The translations under genes were made by a program, and so were the position numbers. Below the pieces are notes generated by a model, which was given only the letters and a program-made list of their open reading frames with translations, searched no databases and was not told the DNA's origin. DNA of 64,000 nt, taken from contig JAYVIR010000026.1 in assembly GCA_043770095.1 (NCBI GenBank), positions 44,678-108,677 of the forward strand, read 5' to 3'. The stretch is from Eubacteriales bacterium (lineage in GTDB: Bacteria > Bacillota > Clostridia > Peptostreptococcales > Acidaminobacteraceae). This document shows positions 18,714 to 53,060 of this stretch, in pieces (the first letter of the stretch is position 1; each line of letters begins with the position of its first letter).

Positions 18714-18869
18714 AATATTCATTGAACAAATTTTAAGAAAATGACATTAAATATTCTTTTAAAAGTAGTTGAAGGTTTGCTTAAGAATTGGTAAGATAAG
18801 AGCAAGAGAAAAACACGAAGTATCATACGAGTTAAAAACATAAATGTTCGTACTATTAGGAGGGACTTC

Positions 18870-21509: not shown

Positions 21510-21576
21510 TATTAATGAAACGAAATTCATATAAACGGGAACGAACCAATTCCCCCACAGGTCAGGGAGGGTACTT

Positions 21577-23261: not shown

Positions 23262-23320
23262 TTAGGAAGATTAATAAATTAGACAATCGGTTGAAATTTA
23301 TATAAATTGGAGAGTGGATC

Positions 23321-24850: not shown

Positions 24851-24854
24851 GAGA

Positions 24855-24898
24855 ATTCGCGAAGCGAATACTCGCGGCAGGACATTCGCAAAGCGAAT
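24855..24898. repeat. Two copies of a 15-bp palindrome ATTCGC-nAA-GCGAAT in the purH-purD intergenic spacer
   Basis: attcgcgaagcgaat (24855-24869) and attcgcaaagcgaat (24884-24898). Each arm pair is exactly reverse-complementary. Confidence 0.6.
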
Positions 24899-24941
24899 TA
24901 CCGAGAGCAGGAGCGTTTAAGTTGAAAGGATGTGTCCATAA

Positions 24942-26201
24942 ATGAAGGTTTTAATCATTGGTAACGGCGCGAGGGAGCATGCCATCGCTTGGAAGCTTCG
25001 CATGAGTCCCTTGGTAGAAGAACTTTATATTGCACCGGGTAATTATGGCACGGAGAAAATTGGTAAAAACGTCAACATCGACGTGGAAGACCTAGAAGGG
25101 CTTAAGGCGTTTGCCATTTCACAGAGGATTGACCTGACGGTTGTCGGGCCCGAAATGCCACTTGTACTCGGCATCGTAGACCTTTTTAGAGCGGCGGGAC
25201 TTAAAATTATTGGGCCTGACAAACGCGGCGCCCAGCTTGAAGGCAGCAAAGACTATGCCAAAGAATTTATGGTCAGACATAACATTCCGACGGCGGCCTA
25301 TGCGACTTACATCGATTACGATAGCTCGGTTAGCGGACTTGAAGCTTTTAAATACCCAATGGTTATCAAGGCGGACGGATTGGCGGCAGGAAAAGGCGTG
25401 ATCATTGCACTTACCAAAGAAGAGGCGCTTGACGCGCTGAAACTTATTTTTATAGATCAGAAATTTGGCAGTTCGGGCAACAAAGTTGTGCTGGAGGAAT
25501 TCCTTGAAGGCGTTGAAGTGTCGGTACTTTGCCTCGTAGACGGCGAGACGATTCTTCCGCTTGAAACGGCGCAGGACTACAAACGCGCATTCAATGACGA
25601 TGAAGGCCCGAATACAGGCGGCATGGGCACGTATTCACCGAGCCGCTATTTGGTAGGCGACCTGTATCAAGAGGCGCTCGACTTGGTGGTTCAGCCAACC
25701 CTAAAAGGCATTCAAGCCGATGGTTACGACTTTAGAGGCATTGTCTTTATTGGCATCATGATGACCAGTGACGGCCCTAAAGTACTCGAATACAACTGTC
25801 GTTTCGGCGATCCAGAAACCCAGTCCATACTGGCAAGACTGGAAAGTGATTTGATGGAAGTCTTTGTGAAATTGTCACGAAAAGAATTGTCAAAAGTGTC
25901 GCTCAAGTGGTCAAGTCAAGTGGCGGTGTCCGTGGTACTCGCTTCTGGCGGTTACCCCGACGACTATGCATCGGGCGTTGAAGTGAAGTCGCCAGAGCGT
26001 TTCTCTGGTCTAACCGATGCAGGGATTCTATTTGCAGCAGGCCTTAAGACCCATACCAATGGCCCCGTGACTGCTGGTGGCAGGGTTATGACCGCAACCG
26101 CTCTTGGAGAAACCTTCGAAGTGGCTAGGGCGAAGGCTTACAACTTAGCGAAATTGGTCAGTTTTGATGGCATGTTTTATAGGACGGATATTGGAAAGTA
26201 A
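24942..26201 (+). CDS. purD: Phosphoribosylamine-glycine ligase (GAR synthetase)
   Basis: 419 aa. The ATP-grasp fold and canonical PurD N-terminus MKVLIIGNGAREHA. Confidence 0.95.
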   Translation: MKVLIIGNGAREHAIAWKLRMSPLVEELYIAPGNYGTEKIGKNVNIDVEDLEGLKAFAISQRIDLTVVGPEMPLVLGIVDLFRAAGLKIIGPDKRGAQLEGSKDYAKEFMVRHNIPTAAYATYIDYDSSVSGLEAFKYPMVIKADGLAAGKGVIIALTKEEALDALKLIFIDQKFGSSGNKVVLEEFLEGVEVSVLCLVDGETILPLETAQDYKRAFNDDEGPNTGGMGTYSPSRYLVGDLYQEALDLVVQPTLKGIQADGYDFRGIVFIGIMMTSDGPKVLEYNCRFGDPETQSILARLESDLMEVFVKLSRKELSKVSLKWSSQVAVSVVLASGGYPDDYASGVEVKSPERFSGLTDAGILFAAGLKTHTNGPVTAGGRVMTATALGETFEVARAKAYNLAKLVSFDGMFYRTDIGK

Positions 26202-38016: not shown

Positions 38017-40140
38017 ATGAAGGTGAGTTTAATCAGTATTTCGATTATCGCAGTTGTAGGGTTAATACTTTTTGTTATCCTACTCAAACTCATTGGTATC
38101 ATTGTTATCGGATCAAACGAAGTCGGTATTATTGAGAAATGGTGGTCTACGCGTGGATCAGTCAAATCGGGCTTCATCGCTTTAAATGGCGAAGCGGGTT
38201 ATCAGCCAGATATGATCAGAGCCGGGATTCATATCAAACCGCTATTCATTTATAAAGTCAGCAAACAGCCACTCATCACCATTCCAAGAGGTCAAATGGC
38301 GTATGTGTTCTCGCGCGATGGTAAGACTTTGGCAGCCTCCCAGCTACTTGGTTTTGACGTAGAATCAAACAGTTTCCAAGATGCAAGAGCTTTCCTCACC
38401 AATGGTGGTTTCAAAGGGCCGCAGGTTGGCTATTTAAAAGATGGTACTTATGCCATCAATACGGCACTGTTTATCGTATTAACAGCAGATCGCACTTACG
38501 GCATTAGACTGGGTTCTTCAAAAGAAGAACTTCAAATGTTAGAAGCGATGAAAAAAGACATTGAAACACGTAATGGATTTTCACCAGTGGTAATTGCCGC
38601 TGAAAACGATGTCCTTGCAATCGTCAATACAAACATGGGTAAACCGCTCTCAAATGGCGACATCATAGCGCCGATTATCGGAAACAACCCAGATGAACCG
38701 AATAATTTCCACAATAACTTCCAAAATGTTAATAACTTTATTGTTTCTGGCGGTTATATGGGTAAGCAATTGCAAGTACTAACAGATGGGACGTACTTTA
38801 TCAACAGGTTGTTCGCAACCATTAAATTTGTGCCTAAAGTTCAGATTCCAATTGGGACAGTAGGTGTTGTGACATCGTTTGCAGGAGATAAAGGGTTAGA
38901 CGTTTCTGGAGATGACTATAAACATGGTGAACTGGTTGAAACGGGCAAAAGAGGGGTTTGGAAAGACGCCCTTGGCGTTGGTAAATACGCAGTCAATACG
39001 GATGCGTGTGCAGTTGCGCTCGTGCCGACTGCCAATACAATGCTCAAATGGTCGGCTCAAGAGTCGGGCACGCACTATGATGAAAATTTAAAAGAAATTT
39101 CATTCCTTACCAAAGATGGTTTTGAAGTTCAGTCTACATTAACCGTGGTTGTCCACGTTGACCGTTTAAAAGCGTCTAGAATCATTCAAAGATTTGGTGA
39201 CATGGTCAAATTATTCGAGCAATCCATTGACCCGCTCATCTCAGCGTATTTCAAAAATGTAGGTCAGACAAAAACGCTTATTGAGCTCAACCAATTCAGA
39301 GACGCCATTCAAAAAGAAGCGACAGACGCGATGAGAATTCAATTCAGAGAATACGATTTGGAACTTGTGTCTATCTTGATTGGTAATCCTGAATCCGCCA
39401 ATAAGGGCGATAACAGCGTTGAAACGATGTATGAACAGCTCAGAAGCCGACAATTGGCTAAAGAGCAAATCATCACTTATCAGTCTCAACAAGAATCCAA
39501 AGAAAAAGAAAAAGAACTCAATGAGGCAGCAGCAGTTGCTCTTCAGCAAAAGTCACTTACAGAGTCTAAGATTAATATTGAAATTGAGAAGAATAAAGGT
39601 CAGGCAGACGCGACAAGAGCAACACAAGAAGCGGCTAAAATTGAGACAATCGCTACTGCAAACGCAAATGCGACAAAACTCACGGCAGCGGCTCAAGCGT
39701 TCAAAATTACACAAGAAGGTTTGGCGCAGTCTATTGCGACAGAAGCCAATGTTGCCGCTTATGGCGGGCCTCAACTCCTGCTTACCAAAGAAGTTATGGG
39801 CATTATTGGAGACGCAATTGCCAAATCTGGATCTCCTATTGTACCAAGTCAAATGGTTGTTTTCGGTGGCGGCGGACATGATGGGGATGAGCAATCGAGT
39901 TTCCCAAATGCGATTGAAAGCCTTGTAAAAACAGCACTTGTTAAGAATCTTGGCATTGACATGGGTATGGTCAAAGATCACTCTAAGCACTCCGAGAACA
40001 TTGAAAACATGAAAAAAGAAATTTTGAATAAGATGACGGCTGAAGCTAAGGCAGAAGCAGGCGCAGATGCGAAAGTGGTTGCTAAACCAGAGCCTTTAGT
40101 AGAACCAAAAATAGAACCAAAAGTAGAGACGCAAGCATAA
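38017..40140 (+). CDS. Flotillin-family (SPFH/band-7) membrane scaffold protein
   Basis: N-terminal TM, SPFH domain, and a C-terminal Ala/Glu/Gln-rich coiled coil typical of FloT/YqiK. 707 aa. Confidence 0.85.
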   Translation: MKVSLISISIIAVVGLILFVILLKLIGIIVIGSNEVGIIEKWWSTRGSVKSGFIALNGEAGYQPDMIRAGIHIKPLFIYKVSKQPLITIPRGQMAYVFSRDGKTLAASQLLGFDVESNSFQDARAFLTNGGFKGPQVGYLKDGTYAINTALFIVLTADRTYGIRLGSSKEELQMLEAMKKDIETRNGFSPVVIAAENDVLAIVNTNMGKPLSNGDIIAPIIGNNPDEPNNFHNNFQNVNNFIVSGGYMGKQLQVLTDGTYFINRLFATIKFVPKVQIPIGTVGVVTSFAGDKGLDVSGDDYKHGELVETGKRGVWKDALGVGKYAVNTDACAVALVPTANTMLKWSAQESGTHYDENLKEISFLTKDGFEVQSTLTVVVHVDRLKASRIIQRFGDMVKLFEQSIDPLISAYFKNVGQTKTLIELNQFRDAIQKEATDAMRIQFREYDLELVSILIGNPESANKGDNSVETMYEQLRSRQLAKEQIITYQSQQESKEKEKELNEAAAVALQQKSLTESKINIEIEKNKGQADATRATQEAAKIETIATANANATKLTAAAQAFKITQEGLAQSIATEANVAAYGGPQLLLTKEVMGIIGDAIAKSGSPIVPSQMVVFGGGGHDGDEQSSFPNAIESLVKTALVKNLGIDMGMVKDHSKHSENIENMKKEILNKMTAEAKAEAGADAKVVAKPEPLVEPKIEPKVETQA

Positions 40141-40194: not shown

Positions 40195-40728
40195 TTAGCG
40201 AATAAAAAAACCGCCAAAAGCCAGTGCGGCTAAAATAATCAGCGAAGGGTGCACCTTAAAGTAGAATAAGAGAACGGCAGAGACGAGCCCAATAATCCCC
40301 GTCGTGACATTTACGTAAGACTGAGGTGTCATTCGGTAAACCGTCTCAAATAGAATGAGCACGACGACTGGTCTAACAGCCACCATCATGCCATTCATCC
40401 AAGGGGCTGATTTAAACTGGTCATAGATCCTAAAAAGAAACACAATGGCAATGGTCGTTGGCAAAACGCTAGAAGCTAAGCCAACGACAACGCCTGTCCA
40501 ACCTGCAACTTTGTAGCCAATGACAGAGGCAAGTTTGGTTGCAATTGGCCCAGGAAGGCTATTGGCAAGGGCGACAGCGTCGGTAAATTCGGGAATCGTC
40601 ATCCAATGATAATTTTCGACGACTTCTTTTTGAACGAGCGAAATGGCTGCTGGACCTCCGCCAAACGTAAAATTACTGGCTCTAAAAAAGGCGACAAATA
40701 GGTCAATATAAGTGTGAAAACTGGTCAT
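40195..40728 (-). CDS. Chromate-transporter-family (CHR) short-chain protein
   Basis: 177 aa. FGGGPAAISLVQKEVVEN...LPGPIATK motifs of the ChrA family. No paired second half-transporter lies adjacent. Confidence 0.7.
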   Translation of the reverse strand: MTSFHTYIDLFVAFFRASNFTFGGGPAAISLVQKEVVENYHWMTIPEFTDAVALANSLPGPIATKLASVIGYKVAGWTGVVVGLASSVLPTTIAIVFLFRIYDQFKSAPWMNGMMVAVRPVVVLILFETVYRMTPQSYVNVTTGIIGLVSAVLLFYFKVHPSLIILAALAFGGFFIR

Positions 40729-40757: not shown

Positions 40758-41753
40758 TTAATCTGTAAAGTATTTTGGCACGAAGCCCATCAGGCCACCC
40801 GTGTGAATAAATAAAATATTTTGAGACGCATTAAACTGTCCCTTTTCAATTTCGCGGATCAGACCACGAAAAGCTTTTCCTGTGTAAACAGGGTCTAAAA
40901 TCAAGCCTTCGCTTTGAGCAATTTCCATAATGAACGCCATTTCTTCTTTTGTGGAGAGGGCATATCCGAGGCCAGCGTAGCCATCGATTATGGCAATGTC
41001 AGAGGTTTTAGCCGTTTCAGGCAGTTCCAAACGACGGAGGGACTCGTTAACAATTTTAGAAATATCATCCTTGAACGCTTCTGCGGTGCTGCTAATATTA
41101 AAGCCGATGATTTGGCGATTGCTTTCACTCAGGTAATTGCCAAGAAAAAGACCGCCGTAAGTGCCACCAGAACCAACCGTACAAACAATGGTGTCAAATG
41201 TTAGCCCAAGCGCTTTTTCCTGATCCAGAATTTCCTCAAAAGCATGGTAATAGCCAAAGTTGCCTATGCCATTAGAAGCCCCAATTGGCAGGATATAAGC
41301 AGGCGTGCCAAGTGCGTCGTACTCGGATTTGAGCTTTTCCATGACTTGTTCGTATTCAGAGGCAAAGACATCGGCTGGAAGAAGGGTGATCTTGGCACCC
41401 ATGAGTTGGTTCATTAAATAATTGCCTTCTATTAAAGGATTCGGTTCGCTTCTTAGCACCAAATGGACGCCGAGCCCCAGTTTTCTAGCTGCGGCAACCG
41501 TCGCTCTGGCATGATTAGACTGAATGCCACCGCAAGTGATGAGTGTCTTTGCCCCCAATGAAAGCGCTTCACAGATAGCATATTCAAGTTTGCGAATTTT
41601 ATTGCCGGAAACTTCGCTGCCGGTATAGTCATCTCGTTTTAGATAGAGGTTGGTTTTGAGCGTAGCAGACAATCGCTCCATTTTTTCGATGGGCGTCGGT
41701 AGGTGGGCAAGTGGTACTCTGTTTGGGATGTTTTTGATGGGCGTAATGGTCAT
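40758..41753 (-). CDS. PLP-dependent D-cysteine desulfhydrase / ACC-deaminase-family enzyme
   Basis: LTPIEKMERLS..., GSEVSGNKIRKLEY (Lys of the PLP site), and TCGGIQSNHARA motifs of the ACC deaminase/DcyD family. Start ATG at 41753 follows RBS aattaggagg. The ORF-track 5' extension lacks an RBS. Confidence 0.8.
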   Translation of the reverse strand: MTITPIKNIPNRVPLAHLPTPIEKMERLSATLKTNLYLKRDDYTGSEVSGNKIRKLEYAICEALSLGAKTLITCGGIQSNHARATVAAARKLGLGVHLVLRSEPNPLIEGNYLMNQLMGAKITLLPADVFASEYEQVMEKLKSEYDALGTPAYILPIGASNGIGNFGYYHAFEEILDQEKALGLTFDTIVCTVGSGGTYGGLFLGNYLSESNRQIIGFNISSTAEAFKDDISKIVNESLRRLELPETAKTSDIAIIDGYAGLGYALSTKEEMAFIMEIAQSEGLILDPVYTGKAFRGLIREIEKGQFNASQNILFIHTGGLMGFVPKYFTD

Positions 41754-42147
41754 ATTGGAACCTCCTAATTGGATTAGTGGCACACAGTCTATGGTCGGTT
41801 TTGCATAAAAAGTTTTGTGTATTTGTTCCTTAAGTTTATCATAAAAGATGACACTTTGGGTTAAGGCAATTATAAATCGGTTTTTAAGGTCAAAATTATG
41901 GTATAATACCGATATGTCTTTTAATGGATGTCGACCGATGTGAAGGTTCGATAAATACATTAAAAATTAGAAGGTTATGAGCTATATTATGTAAATTTGA
42001 AATAAGTTGATTTTTCAGTTCAACTTATGTAGTCATTTTTAGGGCTTATGTCGTGCAGTTTACCGTTTGTCTGACCCACACGTTGGATCACAAGCCACCA
42101 AACGCAGAAGACGAATCACGGGGCATTTACCCCAGGGAGACCCAAAA

Positions 42148-42426
42148 ATGAACAATTTAATTTTAAAAGCAATTGCAAGACCTGAGCAAGCAGGCAATTT
42201 CAAAGAAGCTGGTTTTGTACAAGGCGTTATTTACGGAAAAGGCATTGACTCTTCAGCTGTCAAGTTGGACGAAGCAATGTTAAATAAAATTATTGCAACT
42301 GGTGGCAGAAAATCAGCTGTAACAGTTGACTTTGCAGGCGTAACAATGACTGGCGTACTCAAAGAAGTTCAAATCGCTGTTATGGACCAAACAGTTTCAC
42401 ATGTAGATATCCACATCCTCGGTTAG
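42148..42426 (+). CDS. Ribosomal protein L25/Ctc-like beta-barrel protein lacking the basic rRNA-binding residues
   Basis: 92 aa. LKAIARPEQAGNFKEAGFVQGVIYGKG...VKLDEAML...VSHVDIHILG is colinear with L25 (L-A-x-R...G-x-V-P-A-I-I-Y-G...L-Q-H-I-D-F). The Arg/Lys cluster is replaced by neutral or acidic residues. Confidence 0.4.
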   Translation: MNNLILKAIARPEQAGNFKEAGFVQGVIYGKGIDSSAVKLDEAMLNKIIATGGRKSAVTVDFAGVTMTGVLKEVQIAVMDQTVSHVDIHILG

Positions 42427-42524: not shown

Positions 42525-42552
42525 GGGGCTCTTATAAAAGAGCCCTTTTTTA
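42525..42552 (+). terminator. Terminator hairpin (ggggctcttataaaagagccc + T-run)
   Basis: Direct reading. 8-bp GC-rich stem. Confidence 0.7.
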
Positions 42553-42616: not shown

Positions 42617-44785
42617 GTGTACTTTATGAATAAATCAGAGCAAAATAGCCTCTTAAAAACAAACCCAAAGCGAATTGCGGTAATCACCGGAAGCGATTCC
42701 ACAAAAAATCGACTGGTGCTTCAACTTGAAAAATTACTGGAAGGACATGCCACGATTGAGGGGTATGCTGTCAATTTAGGACTGGTGGGAAAAATAAAAG
42801 CGGATCTGATTGTCTTTTCAAGCGTGTCTCTTCAAAAAGAAGCCACTGCGTGGATTGATCCTAAATGCCCGCAAATCATTGCACGTCGAGCAATTGATAT
42901 CATTCACCTTGATCAGTTATTTTCAATCAGACGAGGTGAGATGGTACTATTAGTCAACGACTCAATGGAGGCGACCTTTGAATCCATTGAGCTTTTGCAA
43001 CTACTGGGGATTGATAATATCAACCTTTTGCCGTGGTGTCCTGAAATGTTTGAAACCGAGCGCAACCACAATATTAATCAATGCCACGTGGCAATCACGC
43101 TTGGAGAATTAGAACTTGTACCGGAATCGATGCTGCATGTGGTCGATTTAGGCCCAAGAATCATCGATTTAAGCACCATTGTAGAAATTTTGCATGAACT
43201 TGATCTACTAGATGAAAAATCTCACTACCTCTCTGCAACCTATCTGGCGACGGTGGTCAAAATGGGCAAAACCATTCATAAAGCGATGGCAGAGCAAGAG
43301 TTGCTCAATGATCGTTTAAAGCAAGTGCTCCATCAAATTCACGATGGCCTATTGGCATATGACGAGCTCGGCATCATTCGCGTGTTTAGTCAAAAGTGTG
43401 AACTGATTTTTGGAAAACGCTCTGAGCGCGTAATTGGCAAGCCGTTGGTGCAAATCATAAAAAATGAGAATCTGATTCAATTTCTCAAAATGTCCATTGA
43501 ATCGGATGAATCCCAAGAACAACTCATTATGATTGAGGCAGGCAATTATCAAGTTCAGCGCTTTACATCGGGTAGAGGAGATTGGACGGTTTGCACCCTC
43601 AGAAGTCTAACAGAGAGTGGTGCCTTAGAGCAGCAAAATCGAAGGCTGCACTTACAAAAGGGGCACATTGCCAAATATGACTTTGAAGACATTCGACATG
43701 AATCAGAAGTCATGAAGGCCGTTGTTCGCACGGCTCAGAAAATTGCCAGAACACCTCTTTCAATTCTTATTTATGGGGAAAGTGGGACTGGAAAAGAGCT
43801 GTTTGCCAGCGCGATTCACAAGGCGTCCAATGTATCGAAGGGTCCCTTTTTAGGGGTCAATTTTAGCGCTCTGCCAGAAGACTTAGTGGAAAGTGAGCTC
43901 TTCGGCTATGAAGAGGGCGCTTTCACAGGGGCAAAAAAAGGCGGCAGACCTGGCCTTTTTGAACAGGCTCACGGCGGGACTCTGTTCCTAGACGAAATTG
44001 GAGATGTTTCTTTGAAAATCCAAGCAAGACTCCTCAGAGTGTTGCAGGAAAAAGAAGTCATGCGCGTTGGCGGGAGCGAAATCATTCCAGTGGATGTGAG
44101 GATCATTGCAGCGACCAATAAGCCACTTATGACACTTTGCGAACAGGGGCAATTTAGAGAGGATTTGTATTACAGACTCAAACGATTGTCGCTTAACACT
44201 CCACCATTAAGGGAACGTCGAGAAGACATTCCGATGCTGTTAAAATTCTTTTTATTGAAAAATGGGTGGCGCCATCCCTTGGAAACTTCAATCAGCGAAG
44301 CCTTGATTCAGGAGCTTCAATCGGCTAATTGGAAGGGCAATGTGAGAGAACTGGAAAGTGTCGTGGAGTACTTGGTAGCGGTTGCAGATGGGGCGATACT
44401 AAATCTGAGTGACTTGCCAACGGATTTTATAGGGGGTGTAAAGGGGTTAAACAAGTTCGCTTCGAAAGTGTTAAATGGGGATGTGCCTATTGAAACCCCC
44501 ATTAAAATAGACAGAGCAGCAGATCTCTTTCACCGCATGTCTGGTAGAGACTATCGGTTTTTGCTCAAACAAATCGATGCTCATAATAAAAAAGGCATTA
44601 GCATCGGCAGAGAAAAACTTTCGCTTGAGGCAAATGAGGCTGGACTTTTACTCACGCAAGATATGGTCAGAGGCAGATTGAAAACCCTTGAACAGCTTGG
44701 CGTTATTGAGGTGACAAAAGGACGAAAAGGACCTGTGCTGACACTTTTGGGGCTTGAACTGCTTACAAAATTGGATAAGAGTTAA
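42617..44785 (+). CDS. Sigma-54-dependent transcriptional activator (PrpR-N-like sensory domain, PAS, AAA+, HTH)
   Basis: AAA+ Walker A GESGTGKE, GAFTGA sigma-54 contact motif (EEGAFTGAKKG), Walker B LFLDEIGD. The N-terminal 200 aa resembles the PrpR N-domain. A PAS-like segment lies around LHQIHDGLLAYDE. The C-terminus has an HTH. Confidence 0.85.
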   Translation: MYFMNKSEQNSLLKTNPKRIAVITGSDSTKNRLVLQLEKLLEGHATIEGYAVNLGLVGKIKADLIVFSSVSLQKEATAWIDPKCPQIIARRAIDIIHLDQLFSIRRGEMVLLVNDSMEATFESIELLQLLGIDNINLLPWCPEMFETERNHNINQCHVAITLGELELVPESMLHVVDLGPRIIDLSTIVEILHELDLLDEKSHYLSATYLATVVKMGKTIHKAMAEQELLNDRLKQVLHQIHDGLLAYDELGIIRVFSQKCELIFGKRSERVIGKPLVQIIKNENLIQFLKMSIESDESQEQLIMIEAGNYQVQRFTSGRGDWTVCTLRSLTESGALEQQNRRLHLQKGHIAKYDFEDIRHESEVMKAVVRTAQKIARTPLSILIYGESGTGKELFASAIHKASNVSKGPFLGVNFSALPEDLVESELFGYEEGAFTGAKKGGRPGLFEQAHGGTLFLDEIGDVSLKIQARLLRVLQEKEVMRVGGSEIIPVDVRIIAATNKPLMTLCEQGQFREDLYYRLKRLSLNTPPLRERREDIPMLLKFFLLKNGWRHPLETSISEALIQELQSANWKGNVRELESVVEYLVAVADGAILNLSDLPTDFIGGVKGLNKFASKVLNGDVPIETPIKIDRAADLFHRMSGRDYRFLLKQIDAHNKKGISIGREKLSLEANEAGLLLTQDMVRGRLKTLEQLGVIEVTKGRKGPVLTLLGLELLTKLDKS

Positions 44786-44865
44786 CGCATAAAGCAACCT
44801 ATATGCGTTGAAATTTTGATTAAGAGCGACCGAAAACTAAAATTTTGTTTTGGTTAAAATGATTT

Positions 44866-44881
44866 TGGCATAAACCTTGCT
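44866..44881 (+). promoter_or_regulatory. Sigma-54 (-24/-12) promoter TGGCAT-aaacc-TTGCT upstream of the yfcC-type gene
   Basis: GG and GC dinucleotides are exactly 12 nt apart (tGGcataaaccttGCtt). It lies 40 nt upstream of the RBS and 80 nt downstream of the activator gene. Confidence 0.55.
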
Positions 44882-44921
44882 TTTAACAACTAGCAGTTCT
44901 TAAAAAGGGGGAATTAGCAAA

Positions 44922-46643
44922 ATGTCAGACCAAAAAAAGAAGCAAGATGAAAAACGGTTCCAAATGCCACACACCTACGTCATTATATTTTTCGTTGTAA
45001 TGTTCTGTTGGGCACTCACATTCATGGTTCCAGTCGGTAAATTCGATACGCATGACGTGACGTATACCAACGCTGACGGCAAAGAGAAAACAAAAACAGT
45101 CCTCTTGCCTGAAACCTTCCGTCTTCAATACCCGCTCGACAACCAAAAGTTGGCTGAAGCGCTTAAAACGACAGATGCTGCCAAACTCACGGAAAGCGGC
45201 GTAGACGCAGAGGCGCTTACCGCACTGATGGCAACAGATCCTGCAACGTGGGAATCTGGCGCATTAGACGAAATGGGTCTTTCAGAATCTACCATTCATC
45301 AACTTTATGACACAAAAGTTTACGACACGACAAGCCCTATCAAAAAACAGGCTAAAATATGGGGCACAGATGACTTCTATGGATTCGGCGTATTTAACTA
45401 CATGTTTGAGGGTCTTGTCACAGGTGACAAATGGGGCTCAGCAGTAGGAATCGTTGCCTTCATTCTCGTTATTGGCGGTGCTTTCGGAATCATTATGAGA
45501 ACTGGCGCAATTGACGCCGGCATTTATGAATTCATTACGCGTGTCAAAGGGGCTCAGTTTTTAGTCATACCGGCACTCTTCATCGTATTCTCACTTGGCG
45601 GCGCTATTTTCGGCATGTCGGAGGAATCCATACCGTTTGCGATGATTGTCATACCGTTTGTGATCGCTATGGGCTATGACTCCCTTGTCGGGGTTGCCAT
45701 TACGTTCGTTGCAACACAAGTGGGCAATGCGACTTCTTGGATGAATCCATTTGGGGTTGCCATCGCTCAAGGTATTGCAGGCGTTCCGGTACTTTCAGGG
45801 GCTACTTTTAGAATTATTATGTGGGTTGTTCTCACAACGGCATCTGTTATTTACATCACCATGTATGCCAATAAAATTAAAAAAGACCCAACAAAATCAA
45901 TTGTTTATGATACAGATCAATATTTCAGAGATCACTTAGCTTCTCAAGATCCAGAACACAGAGCGTTTAAATTAGGCCACGGCTTAGTGCTTCTTTGGAT
46001 GCTGTTTGGCGTCATCTGGATCGTATGGGGCGTTACGAGCGAGGGTTATTATATTCCTGAAATTGCTTCTCAGTTCTTTGTTATGGGTCTTGGCGCAGGT
46101 GTGCTTGCGGTCGTATTCAAACTCAACAATATGAGAATCAACGACATTGCCTCTTCATTCCAAAGCGGTGCCGGTGACCTTGTCGGAGCGGCAATGGTAG
46201 TGGGTATGGCAAAAGGCATTTTGTTGGTACTTGGCGGTTCAAGTGCCACAACGCCAACCGTTTTAAATACAATTTTAAGCTCAGTCGGCAGTTCGCTTGC
46301 AGGTCTTCCAAGCGCTGTAACCGCTGTGCTCATGTACACTTTCCAAACTATTTTCAACTTCTTTGTCACTTCTAATTCAGGTCAAGCGGCTCTAACGATG
46401 CCAATCCTTGCCCCTTTATCTGACATCGTAGGCATCAGCAGACAAGTTGCCGTTCTTTGCTACCAATTGGGATCTGGTTTTGCAGATGCGATTGTACCAA
46501 CATCGGCTTCCCTCATGGGCGTTCTCGGTGTGGCAAGAATGGACTGGACGAAATGGGCAAAATTCCAAATCAAAATGCAAGGGTTCTTCTTTGTATTCGG
46601 CAGCGTGTTCATTGTCATAGCGATTATGATTGGCTATAACTAA
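44922..46643 (+). CDS. YfcC/DcuC-type (ion-transporter superfamily) membrane transporter, candidate dipeptide/basic amino-acid carrier
   Basis: 573 aa with 12 or more hydrophobic segments. Two hairpin-like Gly-rich re-entrant motifs (GGAFGIIMRTGA, GGAIFGMSEESIPFAMIV) resemble the YfcC (putative basic amino acid antiporter) family. Confidence 0.5.
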   Translation: MSDQKKKQDEKRFQMPHTYVIIFFVVMFCWALTFMVPVGKFDTHDVTYTNADGKEKTKTVLLPETFRLQYPLDNQKLAEALKTTDAAKLTESGVDAEALTALMATDPATWESGALDEMGLSESTIHQLYDTKVYDTTSPIKKQAKIWGTDDFYGFGVFNYMFEGLVTGDKWGSAVGIVAFILVIGGAFGIIMRTGAIDAGIYEFITRVKGAQFLVIPALFIVFSLGGAIFGMSEESIPFAMIVIPFVIAMGYDSLVGVAITFVATQVGNATSWMNPFGVAIAQGIAGVPVLSGATFRIIMWVVLTTASVIYITMYANKIKKDPTKSIVYDTDQYFRDHLASQDPEHRAFKLGHGLVLLWMLFGVIWIVWGVTSEGYYIPEIASQFFVMGLGAGVLAVVFKLNNMRINDIASSFQSGAGDLVGAAMVVGMAKGILLVLGGSSATTPTVLNTILSSVGSSLAGLPSAVTAVLMYTFQTIFNFFVTSNSGQAALTMPILAPLSDIVGISRQVAVLCYQLGSGFADAIVPTSASLMGVLGVARMDWTKWAKFQIKMQGFFFVFGSVFIVIAIMIGYN

Positions 46644-46683
46644 CTAAATGACTTACAAACTTGAAACTCTGGAGGTGCATTAA

Positions 46684-47856
46684 GTGATTTTATTAAAACA
46701 AGTGGAAGTATATGCCCCAGAGAAGATTGGGTGCAGAGATGTTCTGATAGGCGCAGAAAAAATACTGCAAATATCAGAAAATGAGATAGATACTGGTGAC
46801 ATGCCCGTAACGGTAATAGATGGAAAAGGCATGGTATTGGTGCCGGGACTCATTGACGCACACGTTCACATCTGTGGTGGCGGAGGTGAAGGTGGTTACA
46901 AAACGCGTACGCCAGAGCTCAAAATGACGGAAATGATTCAAGCGGGCGTAACGACAGTAGTGGGTTGCCTCGGGACGGACGGGATTACCAGAACCATGGA
47001 AAATCTTGTGGCCAAAGTGTACAGCCTGCGTGAAGAAGGGGTTTCTGCTTGGTGCTACAGCGGTTCTTATCAGGTGCCTGTGAGGACTTTGACGGGAGAC
47101 ATCATGAAAGACATTATGCTCATTGACCCAATCATCGGCATTGGAGAAATTGCGCTTAATGATCACAGATCTTCTTCGGTAACGGTTCAGGAACTGGCTC
47201 GAATCACGTCGGAGGCGAGAGTGGCGGGTATTTTGTCAGGCAAAGCGGGCGTTATCAACTGCCATTTAGGCGATGGCCCCTTTGACTTGGATCAAATTGA
47301 TCAAGCGGTAGAACAGTTTGTCCTGCCAATTGCACAATTTTATCCGACCCATATCAACCGAAATGCAGGTCTTTTTGAAAAAGGGATTGCTCATGCTTTA
47401 AAAGGTGGCATGGTGGATATGACCACATCGACAACCCCTCAGTTTATTGAAGAAGGGGAAGTGCCTGCAGCAGAAGCGCTGTTTCTGATGAGGGCTGCGG
47501 GTGTGCCGTCAAATCGCATCACGTTTACATCGGATGGGCATGGCAGTCTTCCAATGTTCGGCCCGACAGGTGAATTTGAAGGCCTTGGCGTTGGACGACT
47601 CGACAGTCTTCTAGAATCGGTCAGAGAAGCGGTAAAAAGACATAACATGCCGCTAGAAGAAGCCTTAGAACCTGTAACGTCAACGCCTGCCAAGTATTTA
47701 AAACTTCACGGCAAAGGGCAGATTCAGGTAAACAAAGATGCCGATTTGGTGCTTCTTGATGCAAGTAGCCTCAACGTTAAAGGGGTTATTGCCAGAGGAA
47801 AACTCTGTATGCTAGACGGTGTGCTTTGTGTAAGGAATACGGTAGAACTTAACTAA
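46684..47856 (+). CDS. iadA: Isoaspartyl dipeptidase (beta-aspartyl peptidase)
   Basis: Closely colinear with E. coli IadA: LVPGLIDAHVHICGGGGEGGYKTRTPEL, VTTVVGCLGTDGITR, GVSAWCYSGSYQVPVRTLTGD, PTHINRN. Confidence 0.85.
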   Translation: MILLKQVEVYAPEKIGCRDVLIGAEKILQISENEIDTGDMPVTVIDGKGMVLVPGLIDAHVHICGGGGEGGYKTRTPELKMTEMIQAGVTTVVGCLGTDGITRTMENLVAKVYSLREEGVSAWCYSGSYQVPVRTLTGDIMKDIMLIDPIIGIGEIALNDHRSSSVTVQELARITSEARVAGILSGKAGVINCHLGDGPFDLDQIDQAVEQFVLPIAQFYPTHINRNAGLFEKGIAHALKGGMVDMTTSTTPQFIEEGEVPAAEALFLMRAAGVPSNRITFTSDGHGSLPMFGPTGEFEGLGVGRLDSLLESVREAVKRHNMPLEEALEPVTSTPAKYLKLHGKGQIQVNKDADLVLLDASSLNVKGVIARGKLCMLDGVLCVRNTVELN

Positions 47857-47902
47857 GGAAATCTAACTATAAAGCTATCTATAAAACAAAGAGCGGTGAC
47901 AT

Positions 47903-49582
47903 ATGATGTTTAAATGCTTTTTGAATGTCAGAGAGGAGAAGGGTTCTTATGACCCTTCTTTTTCTTTTGAGAAATTGGAAGAGACGACGGCAAAATTGTT
48001 AAATGTGGTGGGCGAATATGTAACTTCTACAGATGAAATTGATATGGCGATGAAGGAAATGAGCACTTCCGGTATTCAATTGTCGTGCTCGGCAGAAGAA
48101 CAACTCCACAATATACAAAAGATTAAATCGTTTACAGGAAAAATTTACGAAAGTGCGGAGGAAAACCATCAGTCGGTAAGTGCCATTTTAGAAAATTCAG
48201 AAGCGGTTTATCACGGCGCAGTGAGCAAACAAGCTGCCATAAATGATGCCGTCACTGCTTTTGATAAAGTTCAAGAACAGATGGGTGAGGCTTGTCAAAC
48301 GGTAGAAATTCTTAGAACAAATGCCTCTGAAATTTTAAGCATGATGGGAGCGGTTCGAAACATTGCCTCTCAGACAAATTTACTAGCACTTAATGCGTCA
48401 ATTGAAGCGGCAAGGGCAGGGGATAGCGGCCGAGGTTTCGCGGTCGTCGCCTCTGAAGTTCGAAAGTTGTCAGAGGAAACGGAACTTGTGGTAAAGCAAA
48501 TGTCTGCGCTGATCCAACTGGTAGATCAAAGAGCTGGGCAGACGCAATCGACAATGATGCAAACCATCAGCGGTATCAAACATCAGTCGGGACAACTCGA
48601 ACATATCAGCGAAGACGTCAGCGAAATGGTCACTCAAATTGGCGCGACGCTCTTGTCCGTAAAAGATTTAGATCAAAATAACCAAGACCTTGTGGTTTCG
48701 TGCGATGAAGTGGATCGGCTGACAGAGGCCATTACGCAGAGTGTCTCAGGCAATGTGGCGTCTACCAAACAACTCAGTCAAACCATTAAAGAAGAAGCAG
48801 AGTCTTTGAAGCGGCTGGTTCATATTGGCGGACGTTTTGAGCATTTGACAGAGCAGTTTTATGAAATTCTTGAAACGGAAGTAACGCATGATTCTCAAAA
48901 GGGGTTGGTGCTCGTGACTTCTGCCTACCCACCGTATATTATTGCGCAAAAAGATGGTGTGGTTAGCGGCATTGACATCGACTTGGTCAGAGAGGCTTTT
49001 AAAAGAGCAGGCATTGATGTTCGAGTGCATTTGAGCTCTTTTGATCAGTCGCTTCGATTGGTTCAAAAAGGGTTTGCAGATTTGGTGCCAACGTTGTCTA
49101 GAAATGAAGAACGCTCCAAAACCATGAATTTTACGGAGAATTACAGAGAGCCAACTCGGTATGTGTTTGTTGCGTTGAAGCAGTCAAATCTGGAAATAAG
49201 TCGATTTGAAGCATTAAGAACTTGGAGAGTCGGCGTTATGAGGGGTTATGGCTACTGGGAACAATTTGTTAAAGACAACCAGATTCAAAAAGACATCAGC
49301 GAAAAAGAAGAAATCATGTTCAAAAAGCTTTTCAAAGGCCAAATCAATTGTTTGATTATGAATGAATACGCAGCGCGTTATTTTATTGTTTCAAATGGGC
49401 TACAAGAGCAAGTTAAAATGCTGGCATACAGTCACAGCGAGCAAGCGGGTTCAGATACGCGCATTGCCTTTACGAAAAAACGTGACACAGAGGCGCTTTG
49501 CAAACTATTCGATGAAAAAATGGCTCAGATGAGAACGGATGGGACTTTGAAACAGATTGAGGAACGGTATTTGAAGATTTAA
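47903..49582 (+). CDS. Soluble chemoreceptor-like protein: MCP signalling domain fused to a C-terminal family-3 solute-binding domain
   Basis: No TM segment. Canonical MCP hairpin-tip sequence ASQTNLLALNASIEAARAGDSGRGFAVVASEVRKLSEET. The C-terminal about 230 aa is SBP_bac_3-like (LVTSAYPPYIIAQKDGVVSGIDIDLVREAFKRAGIDV...). Confidence 0.7.
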   Translation: MMFKCFLNVREEKGSYDPSFSFEKLEETTAKLLNVVGEYVTSTDEIDMAMKEMSTSGIQLSCSAEEQLHNIQKIKSFTGKIYESAEENHQSVSAILENSEAVYHGAVSKQAAINDAVTAFDKVQEQMGEACQTVEILRTNASEILSMMGAVRNIASQTNLLALNASIEAARAGDSGRGFAVVASEVRKLSEETELVVKQMSALIQLVDQRAGQTQSTMMQTISGIKHQSGQLEHISEDVSEMVTQIGATLLSVKDLDQNNQDLVVSCDEVDRLTEAITQSVSGNVASTKQLSQTIKEEAESLKRLVHIGGRFEHLTEQFYEILETEVTHDSQKGLVLVTSAYPPYIIAQKDGVVSGIDIDLVREAFKRAGIDVRVHLSSFDQSLRLVQKGFADLVPTLSRNEERSKTMNFTENYREPTRYVFVALKQSNLEISRFEALRTWRVGVMRGYGYWEQFVKDNQIQKDISEKEEIMFKKLFKGQINCLIMNEYAARYFIVSNGLQEQVKMLAYSHSEQAGSDTRIAFTKKRDTEALCKLFDEKMAQMRTDGTLKQIEERYLKI

Positions 49583-49596
49583 GGAGGGCGAACAGT

Positions 49597-50970
49597 TTGA
49601 AACCAGTAAAAGTGACGGAAACAGCGTTAAGAGATGGGCACCAATCACTGATTGCGACCCGCCTTCGGACGGATGAAATACTACCCATCTTAGAAAAAAT
49701 GGATCAGGCGGGGTATTATGCCTTAGAAGTTTGGGGTGGCGCTACATTTGACGCCTGCCTGCGCTTTTTAAATGAAGACCCTTGGGAGAGACTGAGAGCC
49801 ATTCGTGGCATTGTAAAAAACACCAAACTGCAAATGCTTCTCAGAGGGCAAAATTTATTAGGCTACAAACATTATGCAGACGATGTGGTGGAAGCCTTTA
49901 TCTTAAAATCGGTTGAAAATGGCATTGACATTATTCGTGTATTTGACGCGCTCAATGACTTAAGAAATTTGGAAGTCTCTATGAAGGCCATTAAAAAATC
50001 TGGGGCTCACTGCCAATGTGCGATCAGCTATACAACCAGTCCTGTGCATACCAAGGACTACTATATAGAACTCTCTAAACAAATGGTGCTCATAGGTGCA
50101 GATTCAATATGCATAAAAGACATGGCTGGAATTTTGACGCCAAACGGGGCTTTTGAATTGGTAAAAGAACTGAAAGAAGCTGTTTTGGTGCCAATTGAAA
50201 TACACACGCACTGCACAAGCGGCATTGCTTCCATGACTTATTTAAAGGCAGTAGAAGCCGGTGTGGACATTATTGACACTGCGATTTCACCATTTTCTGA
50301 GGGCACTTCTCAACCGCCAACGGAGTCGATGGCAATGGTTTTGGACGAAACGGACCGTGGCCCAAGGCTCAATATGGCAATTTTAAGCGAAGTTGCGGAT
50401 TACTTTAAACCCATCAGAGACAAGTATAGAGTCGAAGGCATTTTAAACGCCAAAGTGATGGATGTCGAACCCAACACGCTCACGTATCAAGTGCCGGGCG
50501 GCATGCTCTCAAATTTACTTTCGCAACTTGAGGCTCAAGGCGCAAGCCATCATTATGAAGCGGTTCTAAGGGAAATTCCAAGGGTTAGGGCAGACTTAGG
50601 CTATCCGCCACTGGTCACGCCGCTGAGTCAAATGGTCGGCACGCAAGCGGTTTTTAATATTTTAACTGGCGAGCGTTACAAAATGGTGCCTAAAGAAATC
50701 AAAGAATATGTCAAAGGCCTATATGGGGCATTCCCAGCACCTCTAAATGAAAGCGTCAAGCAGTTCATTCTTGGAGATGAGGCAATCATAACGGTAAGAC
50801 CAGCAGACTTGCTCGAGCCAGAACTTGATAAATACACCCTAGAAATAGGCGACTTGGCAACGTCTTTAGAAGATGTGCTCTCTTATAGTTTGTTCCCACA
50901 GGTGGCTAGAAAGTTCTTTGAGGCGCGTTTAAAAATGTCGGATGTTCACTATATTACTGTAACGATGTAA
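49597..50970 (+). CDS. Oxaloacetate decarboxylase alpha-type carboxyltransferase subunit (no biotinyl domain)
   Basis: TIM-barrel carboxyltransferase: VTETALRDGHQSL, metal ligands in HTHCTSG. 457 aa, so it lacks the C-terminal biotin carrier domain of full-length OadA. TTG start with RBS ggaggg. Confidence 0.8.
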   Translation: MKPVKVTETALRDGHQSLIATRLRTDEILPILEKMDQAGYYALEVWGGATFDACLRFLNEDPWERLRAIRGIVKNTKLQMLLRGQNLLGYKHYADDVVEAFILKSVENGIDIIRVFDALNDLRNLEVSMKAIKKSGAHCQCAISYTTSPVHTKDYYIELSKQMVLIGADSICIKDMAGILTPNGAFELVKELKEAVLVPIEIHTHCTSGIASMTYLKAVEAGVDIIDTAISPFSEGTSQPPTESMAMVLDETDRGPRLNMAILSEVADYFKPIRDKYRVEGILNAKVMDVEPNTLTYQVPGGMLSNLLSQLEAQGASHHYEAVLREIPRVRADLGYPPLVTPLSQMVGTQAVFNILTGERYKMVPKEIKEYVKGLYGAFPAPLNESVKQFILGDEAIITVRPADLLEPELDKYTLEIGDLATSLEDVLSYSLFPQVARKFFEARLKMSDVHYITVTM

Positions 50971-51017
50971 GTTGAATGAGTAGGTCAACTTATAGAGATC
51001 ATAAAGGAAGTGGATAT

Positions 51018-51227
51018 ATGGAAATTTTAAAATGGATTAAGGGGTTATTAGGAAGTAAGGCTGAAGCCGCTACGGTTACAGCGACCACGCCAGAAGTCGC
51101 TGAAAAGTGCTCACTGCCAATGGACGACGAAGAAAAAAATCTGGTTGCGGTCATCACCTCATGCATTGCAGGAAAAGACACGCCAGACGCTCAACTGCAC
51201 ATTCAGCGCATAACGCGTATTGACTAA
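51018..51227 (+). CDS. Small soluble protein resembling the Ala/Thr-rich linker and C-terminal region of OadG-type gamma subunits
   Basis: 69 aa from ATG 51018 (RBS aaggaag). AEAATVTATTPEV linker, then EEKNLVAVITSCIAG, similar to the C-terminal conserved segment of Na+-decarboxylase gamma subunits. Confidence 0.3.
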   Translation: MEILKWIKGLLGSKAEAATVTATTPEVAEKCSLPMDDEEKNLVAVITSCIAGKDTPDAQLHIQRITRID

Positions 51228-51250
51228 AGAAAAAAGGAGTAAAACATAAA

Positions 51251-51625
51251 ATGGAAATGAAAAAATATGTCCTTAAATTGAATGGAAAGGTTTACGAGGT
51301 TGAAATGGGAGAAGTCGGCACGGTTTCAAATACAGGCGCGGTGGATCCTTCTAAAAACGAAATAGTGACACTTTCTCCACTCAAAGCAGTGGAAAGCCCT
51401 GTCGGGGCATACAGAGAGACGGTCATTTCGCCAATGCCGGGGACAATCATCAGTGTGCTTGTCAAAGCGGGTGACATTGTCAAACGCAATCAGGTGTTGG
51501 TTGTCCTTGAAGCCATGAAAATGGAAAATGAAATTGTATCACCAATAGATGGCACGATCCTTTCAATCTCTGCAACCAAAGGGGTTGCCGTTAATGTCAG
51601 CGAAGAACTCGTGAGAATCGGATAG
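51251..51625 (+). CDS. Biotin carboxyl carrier protein (biotinyl domain)
   Basis: EAMKMEN biotinylation motif. 124 aa. Confidence 0.85.
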   Translation: MEMKKYVLKLNGKVYEVEMGEVGTVSNTGAVDPSKNEIVTLSPLKAVESPVGAYRETVISPMPGTIISVLVKAGDIVKRNQVLVVLEAMKMENEIVSPIDGTILSISATKGVAVNVSEELVRIG

Positions 51626-51635
51626 GAGGTAGCTC

Positions 51636-52760
51636 GTGGATATATTAATCAGTGGTATTCTCTCGGTTACCTTTAAGCAAATATTCATGTGGGGTGTCGG
51701 CGGACTGCTCATATACTTAGCCATAAAAAAAGAATACGAACCAGCGCTTCTTCTCCCGATGGGTTTTGGCGCAATTATCGTCAATTTTCCAATGACAGGC
51801 GTACTGACTCAAAACATCGGCGGAAAAGAGATTGAAGGTATTTTAGATTTCCTGTTCACAGGGGGTATAGCAACAGAACTCTTTCCACTGCTGATTTTCA
51901 TTGGTATTGGCGCCATGATTGACTTTGGGCCTTTGCTTCAAAATCCGTTCATGCTTTTATTTGGCGCGGCGGCGCAGTTTGGGATTTTCTTCACAATTTG
52001 CGTGGCAACGCTCATTGGCGGATTTGATATTAGAGAAGCGGCTTCCATTGGCATTATAGGCGCGGCAGATGGTCCGACGTCCATTTTCGTTACCAGTCAG
52101 TTGGCTTACCATCTACTGGGCCCCGTCACAATCGCGGCATATTCTTACATGGCCTTAGTGCCAATCATTCAACCAATTGCCATTAAAATGGTGACGACAA
52201 AAGCAGAACGTCAAATTAGAATGACTTATAAAGCAGAGCGTATTTCCAAGACGACTAAAATTCTATTCCCAATTGTCATCACGGTCATTGCGGGTCTCAT
52301 TGCGCCTGTATCCCTTCCACTCATTGGATTTTTAATGTTTGGAAATTTACTCAGGGAGTGCACTGTATTAGACCGATTGTCAAATGCCGCACAAAATGAG
52401 TTGGTCAACATTGTCACTATTTTGCTTGGCATAACAATTGCCACTAAAATGACAGCAGATGAATTCTTGCAAATGGACACGCTGCTCATTATTTCTTTTG
52501 GCCTTGTAGCGTTTGTATTTGATACGATTGGCGGCGTTTTATTTGCCAAATTCATCAATTTATTCAGAAAAGAAAAATTCAATCCGATGATTGGCGCAGC
52601 CGGTATTTCAGCCTTTCCAATGTCGGCGCGTGTCATTCAGAAGATGGCTCAAAAAGAAGATCCGCAAAACTTTGTACTTATGTATGCGGTAGGTGCGAAT
52701 GTCGCAGGACAGATTGCATCGGTAATCGCGGGCGGATTGGTTTTGGCATTCTTTGCTTAA
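51636..52760 (+). CDS. oadB: Na+-translocating decarboxylase beta subunit
   Basis: 374 aa polytopic membrane protein with the conserved OadB/GcdB/MmdB pattern (GFGAIIVNFPM..., IGAADGPTSIFV..., IGAAGISAFPMSARV). Confidence 0.9.
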   Translation: MDILISGILSVTFKQIFMWGVGGLLIYLAIKKEYEPALLLPMGFGAIIVNFPMTGVLTQNIGGKEIEGILDFLFTGGIATELFPLLIFIGIGAMIDFGPLLQNPFMLLFGAAAQFGIFFTICVATLIGGFDIREAASIGIIGAADGPTSIFVTSQLAYHLLGPVTIAAYSYMALVPIIQPIAIKMVTTKAERQIRMTYKAERISKTTKILFPIVITVIAGLIAPVSLPLIGFLMFGNLLRECTVLDRLSNAAQNELVNIVTILLGITIATKMTADEFLQMDTLLIISFGLVAFVFDTIGGVLFAKFINLFRKEKFNPMIGAAGISAFPMSARVIQKMAQKEDPQNFVLMYAVGANVAGQIASVIAGGLVLAFFA

Positions 52761-52796
52761 GGCTGAAGGTATAAAAGATGAAAGGAAGAAAATAAG

Positions 52797-52955
52797 ATGA
52801 ATTTTATGGACAACATTAGCCAGAACGTGCCAGATTTCTTAATTGCACTACAGATTATGAGCTTCGGCATGGTAGGCATATTCATAGTGCTAGGTCTGTT
52901 ATTTGTATCGGTCAAAGTACTCATAAAGCTATTCCCAGAAAAAACAGTTCAATAA
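52797..52955 (+). CDS. Unannotated 52-aa single-TM peptide resembling the N-terminal membrane anchor of OadG (gamma subunit)
   Basis: ATG 52797 after aaggaag. MNFMDNISQNVPDFLIALQIMSFGMVGIFIVLGLLFVSVKVLIKLFPEKTVQ. It lies 36 nt after oadB and is followed by a terminator. It is below the 60-aa ORF-track cutoff. Confidence 0.45.
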   Translation: MNFMDNISQNVPDFLIALQIMSFGMVGIFIVLGLLFVSVKVLIKLFPEKTVQ

Positions 52956-52997
52956 ATGTCCCAAGCCTCGCAAAACCCTATGCGAGACACCCTCTAA

Positions 52998-53060
52998 AAA
53001 ACAGCCGCGTTGTAGATGCACCCAACTCTACAGCTGTTAAAGCGGCTGTTTTTTTGTTTT
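52998..53060 (+). terminator. Compound Rho-independent terminator at the end of the sigma-54 operon
   Basis: aaacagccgc ... gcggctgttttttt with an inner hairpin, then a long T-run. Confidence 0.7.

Follow-up and report, generated by a model that had tools for sequence, protein, structure and literature searches.

Introduction

The polymer cyanophycin is in widespread use as a store of nitrogen and carbon, β-aspartyl dipeptides are the product of its breakdown, and recent work argues that scavenging of the β-Asp-Arg dipeptides derived from it is common. Scavenging loci in which a cyanophycinase gene lies together with iadA or iaaA and a transporter have been described by Ben Hania et al., as cited in Sharon et al. 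2023 (PMC10206079), and Pseudomonas aeruginosa has a dedicated system for β-Asp-Arg utilisation, aot/CphZ (PMC9974463). Here, we describe a locus in a 64,000-nucleotide stretch of DNA from a Eubacteriales bacterium (assembly GCA_043770095.1, contig JAYVIR010000026.1, positions 44,678 to 108,677; hereafter, the window), in which a gene for a sigma-54-dependent enhancer-binding protein (EBP) is followed by genes for a YfcC-type carrier, the isoaspartyl dipeptidase IadA, a fusion of a methyl-accepting chemotaxis protein with a substrate-binding protein (MCP-SBP) and a split-subunit oxaloacetate decarboxylase (OAD). We consider it reasonably probable that the locus is a sigma-54-dependent catabolic operon for β-aspartyl dipeptides, and the module is best read as a variant of the known cyanophycin/β-Asp-dipeptide scavenging locus.

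As in the cyanophycin and β-Asp-Arg systems, a dipeptide importer (in the window, a proposed one) and a β-Asp dipeptidase are encoded together for nutrition. The window differs from the cyanophycin loci in that it does not encode a cyanophycinase, which its orthologues L037, L038, L029, L009, L022 and L006 do; in that its transporter is a YfcC/DcuC-family carrier rather than an ABC system; and in that control by sigma-54 and a dedicated EBP is added, along with a presumably Na+-pumping OAD and a predicted cytoplasmic MCP-SBP. The OAD follows the same split-subunit plan as the citrate OADs of Firmicutes (Enterococcus faecalis oadHDB...oadA, PMC3198936, PMC6193673; Clostridium omnivorum, locus L040 below). 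However, the oxaloacetate would come from a source other than citrate lyase, no cit genes being present among the scanned open reading frames (ORFs), and an EBP takes the place of the GntR-type CitO as regulator. Clostridial amino-acid operons under sigma-54 and an EBP, such as that of proline reductase and PrdR, share with the window a one-component EBP with PAS and AAA+ domains encoded beside its target operon. PrdR is also the best NCBIfam match of the window EBP, but at 358 bits this match is far under the 795-bit cutoff, and the N-terminal sensor matches no Pfam family. A reconstruction of clostridial sigma-54 regulons (PMC6615313) makes no mention of isoaspartyl, dipeptidase, cyanophycin or oxaloacetate, and a full-text literature search returned no paper linking cyanophycin or iadA to OAD or sigma-54. 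The view in an earlier reading of the window from its sequence alone, which was aware of no described pathway with this gene combination, therefore needs narrowing: loci with cyanophycinase, iadA and a transporter are known, and the elements that appear to be new are sigma-54/EBP control, the YfcC-type carrier, the built-in, presumably Na+-pumping OAD and the chemoreceptor with its cytoplasmic SBP domain.

Results

An ORF listing combined with Pfam and NCBIfam profile searches placed nine co-directional genes on the plus strand, and the identities assigned to them by the sequence-only reading were sustained for all nine (Table 1). IadA can be aligned over its entire length with IadA proteins of known structure (E 4e-105 for 7cdh and 5e-97 for the Escherichia coli enzyme, 1onw), and in this alignment it retains the motifs HxH, GGGGEGG, GTDG, GEIAxxDHRS (as in 7cdh), PTH..NR and SDG-GS. 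The YfcC carrier has ~10 hydrophobic segments and is the proposed importer of the β-Asp dipeptide; NCBIfam labels its family a putative basic amino acid antiporter. The split-subunit OAD set is complete, with OadA, a separate biotin carrier, OadB and an OadG-like membrane subunit. OadA starts at a TTG codon preceded by an AAGGAGG ribosome-binding site, and gene callers place the start of the EBP gene at 42626. The 83-aa protein encoded between OadA and the biotin carrier had been called OadG-C-like. This label is reasonable, as homologues hold the same slot in the OAD cassettes of L039 (46% identity) and L040 (37% identity), but weak, as the match to the C-terminal part of OAD_gamma is below threshold (E 0.018); the protein may be the counterpart of the C-terminal part of OadG.

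Several observations bear on the transcription of these genes. An exact sigma-54 consensus lies in the spacer between the EBP gene and yfcC, and TGGCAY-N5-TTGCW has two exact matches in the 64 kb against 0.31 expected. The other match (25245-25260, minus strand) is antisense within purD (24942-26201) and is probably there by chance. The -24/-12 element is present at the same position in the related loci L036, L037, L038, L039 and L029, and in L036 to L038 the leader 3′ of it is conserved as well, as far as the ribosome-binding site. No other available evidence speaks as strongly for a real promoter as this phylogenetic footprint, and the consensus promoter that had been recognised downstream of the EBP gene is thus supported by an exact match and by its conservation in five orthologous loci. 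The eight genes from yfcC to oadG are separated by 5-47 nt, with 14 nt and no terminator between the MCP-SBP gene and oadA, and a scan of the plus strand from yfcC through oadG found no terminator site. Sigma-70-like matches inside the operon (33 vs. 24.5 ± 5.2 in shuffled sequence) are not significantly enriched. No RNA family was found in an Rfam scan of the whole window, and control is therefore not explained by a riboswitch or leader; rpoN was not among the window ORFs scanned.

The hairpin that directly follows the EBP stop codon is most likely the terminator of the EBP gene, although a role as an enhancer site is also conceivable. At the matching place, L037 and L038 have clear terminators consisting of a stem and a T run. 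The palindrome as an enhancer site was dropped as first choice, since the orthologous loci carry unrelated hairpins, two of them with T runs. Because the hairpin follows the EBP stop codon, the EBP gene probably forms a separate transcript, and the transcription unit probably comprises the eight genes from yfcC through oadG. Thus, the proposed sigma-54 operon is supported by its promoter, its tight packing and the absence of an internal terminator, while the EBP gene is probably transcribed apart from it.

IadA-based scans of genome and metagenome collections yielded 25 related loci. The window has matches in metagenome contigs only, and its relatives are Bacillota/Clostridia-like. The yfcC-iadA pair is conserved in >15 loci, and the core of EBP gene, sigma-54 promoter, yfcC and iadA in five others, with the L036 contig cut after yfcC. 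None of the 25 IadA-derived loci carries OAD genes. A view of the linkage between OAD and this core as a one-off, taken from these loci, was overturned by the neighbourhoods of MCP-SBP, EBP and OadA homologues. L029 is one of these neighbourhoods (identity to the window: MCP-SBP 57%, EBP 46%, YfcC 76%, OadB 65%), with sigma-54 promoters 5′ of both iadA and yfcC. In L039, the OAD set lies directly 3′ of iadA, after an iadA-oadA gap of 290 nt. L038 ends 36 codons into oadA (97% identical), while L030 and L031, from the same groundwater study, contain the end of oadB followed by oadG, MCP-SBP, ychF, rpsD, two M16 peptidase genes and lgt. In L037, the string ychF, rpsD, M16, M16, lgt comes directly after cyanophycinase. 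Because of the common study, the matching oadA and oadB ends and the downstream gene string shared with L037, we infer that a single locus extends from L038 to L030, with the order EBP, yfcC, iadA, cyanophycinase, oadA...oadB, oadG, MCP-SBP. OAD is thereby attached to the EBP-yfcC-iadA core in at least four lineages (the window, L039, L038+L030 and L029) and in three gene orders. Such a recurrent linkage in varied orders is hard to explain without functional coupling, and the gene-neighbourhood comparison therefore strengthens the link of iadA and yfcC to OAD on which the sequence-only reading was built.

OadA is highly conserved among clostridia, and its closest homologue (P0241) has 93% identity. 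The comparison that bears on the substrate is with C. omnivorum (L040), in which the same five OAD genes in the same order directly follow citG-citD-citE-citF-citX and a gene for a GntR regulator (identity: OadA 79%, small subunit 37%, BCCP 49%, OadB 75%, OadG-like 58%). This is the classical layout of citrate fermentation, and the substrate of the cassette there must be oxaloacetate from citrate lyase. Because the same cassette follows citrate lyase genes in C. omnivorum, the substrate of the window cassette is predicted to be oxaloacetate as well, and by homology the cassette is a bona fide OAD module placed behind a different oxaloacetate-yielding pathway. Methylmalonyl-CoA and glutaconyl-CoA decarboxylases use other carboxyltransferase subunits. 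For this reason, and given the identity to the C. omnivorum cassette, a preference for methylmalonyl-CoA or glutaconyl-CoA, raised earlier as an alternative, is unlikely.

The EBP consists of an N-terminal sensor with a probable two-lobed α/β fold (approximately residues 18-209), a PAS domain, an AAA+ domain with the GAFTGA motif that had already been noted, and a C-terminal winged-helix-like DNA-binding region. The sensor had been described as PrpR-N-like. Residues 1-227 have no match to PF06506 (PrpR_N), even at E up to 10, or to any other Pfam family, and Foldseek detects a weak similarity to PrpR_N (E 7.5e-3, TM about 0.4). We thus reject membership in PrpR_N; a resemblance in fold is at most weak. 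Full-length EBP homologues adjoin iadA in L008, L009, L010, L022, L025, L029, L037, L038 and L039. Homologues with 61-74% identity sit in loci with the gene order of the window (L036-L039). In L008, L009, L010, L022 and L025, iadA is immediately followed by a homologue with 37-38% identity over residues 18-720, and in these loci, with the exception of L008, a consensus sigma-54 promoter lies 5′ of iadA. The N-terminus of an HD-GYP (HD_5) protein, encoded in L034 and L035 directly after MCP-SBP and cyanophycinase, is homologous to the EBP sensor (25% identity, BLASTP E 2e-14). Its occurrence there fits a common ligand-sensing module, and the EBP-type sensor may also feed cyclic di-GMP (c-di-GMP) signalling via the HD-GYP protein. 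A second hint of a c-di-GMP connection is a gene for a GGDEF diguanylate cyclase (L029:3-1112) directly upstream of the sigma-54-driven iadA.

The window MCP-SBP is devoid of hydrophobic segments, its homologues have a single N-terminal anchor or none, and a transmembrane topology with an extracytoplasmic sensor was not found. Because of this, the SBP domain is predicted to be cytoplasmic, also in the anchored homologues. The domain resembles binding proteins for polar and basic amino acids. The architecture of MCPsignal plus SBP_bac_3 occurs in ~48 protein clusters. Six MCP-SBP neighbourhoods contain cyanophycinase and/or oadB-oadG: MCP-SBP adjoins cyanophycinase in L029, L032, L033 and L034/35, and oadB-oadG in L029 and L030. 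In several of them, a sigma-54 promoter lies 5′ of MCP-SBP or of cyanophycinase.

The suggested connection to cyanophycin is supported by these recurrent MCP-SBP neighbours and by the cyanophycinase genes in the orthologous core loci L037, L038 and L029, although the window itself carries none. The S51 proteins of L029, L032, L009, L034 and L022 pass the cyanophycinase model TIGR02069 (142-171 bits vs. 126.6); in L032 to L035, cyanophycinase lies apart from iadA. In L009 and L022, iadA and the EBP gene are followed by genes for an S51 peptidase and for an Opp-type ABC transporter, both of which have a sigma-54 promoter of their own. Full-length EBP homologues are found in loci of Spirochaetes and Bacillota in which sigma-54 promoters lie 5′ of iadA, cyanophycinase and Opp-type transporter genes. 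A CphZ-like gene lies beside iadA and the EBP gene in L008.

Table 1. Features of the locus (window coordinates) and composition of related loci
Feature	Position	Strand	Basis or gene order
Terminator-like hairpin	42525-42546	+	9-pair stem and T run; splits the L25/Ctc-like gene from the EBP gene
Sigma-54 EBP	42617-44785	+	PF00158 (Sigma54_activat), 226 bits; PAS; GAFTGA in translation
Hairpin AACGCATA-N10-TATGCGTT	44786-44811	+	Immediately after the EBP stop codon
Sigma-54 -24/-12 promoter (predicted) TGGCATaaaccTTGCT	44866-44881	+	Exact consensus; 40 nt 5′ of the yfcC ATG
YfcC/DcuC-family carrier	44922-46643	+	NF008611, 687 bits vs. cutoff 500
Isoaspartyl (β-aspartyl) dipeptidase IadA	46684-47856	+	TIGR01975, 499.7 bits vs. 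equivalog cutoff 331.25
MCP-SBP fusion	47903-49582	+	MCPsignal (PF00015, 105.7 bits vs. 34.6), then C-terminal amino-acid-type SBP_bac_3
OadA, carboxyltransferase subunit without biotin domain	49597-50970	+	NF008985, 792 bits vs. 718
Small soluble OAD subunit, 83 aa (69 aa if start = 51018)	50976-51227	+	OAD_gamma, sub-threshold
Biotin carboxyl carrier protein (BCCP), OadD-type	51251-51625	+	EAMKME motif
OadB, membrane carboxybiotin decarboxylase/Na+ pump subunit	51636-52760	+	TIGR01109, 433 bits vs. 191
OadG-related subunit, 52 aa, single transmembrane helix	52797-52955	+	NF040909, 45.7 bits vs. 25
Terminator-like hairpin and T run	53030-53049	+	3′ of the last gene; ends the operon
HD-GYP protein with EBP-type sensor	L034:11871-13073		Directly after MCP-SBP and cyanophycinase
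HD-GYP protein with EBP-type sensor	L035:8263-9498		Directly after MCP-SBP and cyanophycinase
Related locus	L029		iadA, EBP, yfcC, oadB, oadG-like, MCP-SBP, cyanophycinase
Related locus	L036		EBP, yfcC (contig cut)
Related locus	L037		EBP, yfcC, iadA, S51 peptidase (62% identical to L029 cyanophycinase)
Related locus	L038		EBP, yfcC, iadA, S51 peptidase (62% identical to L029 cyanophycinase), oadA start
Related locus	L039		EBP, yfcC, iadA, oadA, small subunit, BCCP, oadB
Related locus, Sedimentibacter metagenome-assembled genome	L006		Sigma-54 promoter, oppABCDF, S51 peptidase, CphZ-like AstE/AspA-family protein, iadA

Discussion

We favour a scheme for the operon in which the inducer, the transported substrate, the formation of oxaloacetate from aspartate, the pumping of Na+ and the role in chemotaxis are what we infer from gene content. 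The two-lobed N-terminal domain of the EBP would sense the dipeptide or its product and fire the -24/-12 promoter before yfcC. YfcC would take up the β-Asp dipeptide, and IadA would cleave it into L-aspartate and a second amino acid (arginine, lysine or another). An enzyme encoded outside the locus, in the simplest case an aspartate aminotransferase, would then turn aspartate into oxaloacetate; we assume it to be a housekeeping enzyme. OadA would move the carboxyl group of oxaloacetate to biotin on the separate carrier protein with release of pyruvate, and OadB together with the small OadG-like subunits would decarboxylate carboxybiotin and export Na+. In this way, the aspartate half of the dipeptide would be turned into a sodium-motive force usable for uptake or ATP synthesis, while the soluble MCP-SBP would report the internal ligand pool to the chemotaxis system.

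A number of observations weigh against this scheme. Its weakest link is the step from aspartate to oxaloacetate: none of the four OAD-linked loci contains an aminotransferase, aspartase or aspartate oxidase. In agreement with the sequence-only reading, no aminotransferase or citrate lyase was named in the Pfam and NCBIfam scans, which covered 29 ORFs of the window (~20 others of ≥100 aa lay outside them), and no cyanophycinase homologue was found in the 64-kb window (best tblastn E 0.5). The source organism either encodes a cyanophycinase elsewhere or feeds on dipeptides freed by others, and the locus does not account for the fate of the arginine half. Moreover, IadA from cyanophycin clusters is promiscuous for β-Asp-X (PMC10206079), so that any isoaspartyl dipeptide could be the natural substrate. 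L029 has oadB and oadG with no oadA or BCCP gene in 12.8 kb. Finally, OAD is absent from L037, which has the core and cyanophycinase, and the closest yfcC-iadA relatives, L016-18 (78% and 81% identity; M16 peptidase, yfcC, iadA and a divergent GntR gene), lack both the EBP and OAD. Thus, OAD is an optional add-on to the core.

This last point is also what an arrangement of two unrelated neighbours would predict, namely a sigma-54-dependent dipeptide unit of yfcC-iadA, with or without MCP-SBP, next to a general OAD cassette that has its own promoter and serves, e.g., citrate or malate/phosphoenolpyruvate metabolism without a special tie to aspartate. The five-gene cassette is mobile and self-contained, as its place behind citrate lyase in C. 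omnivorum illustrates, the gap between iadA and oadA in L039 is wide, and the non-significant excess of sigma-70-like matches would leave room for a separate promoter. We nevertheless regard this arrangement as unlikely, because the linkage is found in four lineages and three gene orders, because oadB-oadG in L029 is inserted between yfcC and MCP-SBP, and because the short, terminator-free gap before oadA in the window joins the two parts. About equally improbable, in our estimate, is that the locus salvages isoaspartyl dipeptides from protein damage or environmental proteolysis rather than from cyanophycin, with OAD disposing of the aspartate carbon. The promiscuity of IadA and the lack of a cyanophycinase gene in the window are compatible with such a salvage function, as is the pairing of yfcC-iadA with an M16 peptidase in the closest relative and with M19, M20 or M3 peptidases in others. 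However, cyanophycinase genes are present in three orthologous core loci and beside MCP-SBP in L029, L032, L033 and L034/35, and CphZ-like genes lie beside iadA in L008 and L006, all of which argues for cyanophycin.

OAD-driven Na+-coupled substrate uptake has reportedly been established in Klebsiella citrate fermentation by Dimroth and co-workers. By this precedent, YfcC could be a Na+ symporter for which the pump recycles Na+, so that OAD would mainly energise transport and net energy conservation would be secondary. The order in L029, where oadB-oadG come straight after yfcC and neither oadA nor BCCP is present, speaks for such a role; the NCBIfam name of the carrier family, a putative antiporter, speaks against it. 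We assign this option the lowest probability of those discussed and consider it improbable; it is a refinement of the proposed β-aspartyl dipeptide catabolism rather than a true alternative to it.

If the operon functions in β-aspartyl dipeptide catabolism, the locus offers a testable pathway from the aspartate half of the dipeptide to a sodium-motive force. Its EBP and MCP-SBP would be candidates for a dedicated transcriptional sensor and a chemoreceptor of the dipeptide, and the YfcC transporters, a poorly characterised family, would gain a candidate class of substrates. The locus also shows the clostridial OAD cassette to be a portable module, which one organism has downstream of citrate lyase genes and another downstream of a dipeptidase gene. 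More tentatively, and with somewhat less than even confidence, we suggest that anaerobes of the Bacillota and Spirochaetes share a hitherto undescribed sigma-54 regulon for cyanophycin and β-Asp-Arg/Lys in which the novel two-lobed N-terminal domain of the EBP acts as a dedicated dipeptide sensor and is used again on an HD-GYP protein, that one branch ferments the aspartate via the Na+-pumping OAD, and that the SBP chemoreceptor steers cells to the polymer. If true, cyanophycin would be an energy source, beyond its role as a nitrogen source, in anoxic habitats.

Genomic surroundings

Among the related loci, L036 (1-7900) and L039 (205-2936) have a bacterial microcompartment cluster directly upstream of the EBP-yfcC locus, with genes for BMC shell proteins, EutN, a PduO-type adenosyltransferase, an aldehyde dehydrogenase, an RnfC-like protein and a dehydratase subunit. 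L004, from the closest species-representative genome (78% IadA identity), was uninformative, as it holds a 5′-truncated iadA only; there, codons for IadA residues 95-390 lie beside a 317-aa ORF on the opposite strand (L004:8654-10921), and this iadA may be a disrupted copy.

Upstream of the EBP gene in the window, a short L25/Ctc-like ORF (42067-42426; 92-119 aa), with the N-terminal domain only and below family cutoffs, ends at a strong terminator. It is preceded by two minus-strand genes unrelated to the operon, for a pyridoxal phosphate enzyme of the D-cysteine desulfhydrase/ACC-deaminase family (40758-41960; TIGR01275 above cutoff) and a half-size protein of the chromate-transporter family (40195-40728). 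Farther upstream are genes for a 707-aa Band_7 (SPFH) domain protein (38017-40140) and, on the minus strand, a 648-aa SLH-domain surface protein (35204-37150); the SLH domain indicates a Bacillota-type cell envelope. A purine biosynthesis operon with a purL-like FGAR amidotransferase gene, purF, purM, purH and purD occupies 14901-26201, and the first 14 kb of the window contain lysS and cell-wall genes (VanY, M23/LysM/G5). The purine operon, lysS and the cell-wall genes show the module to lie in an ordinary chromosomal context.

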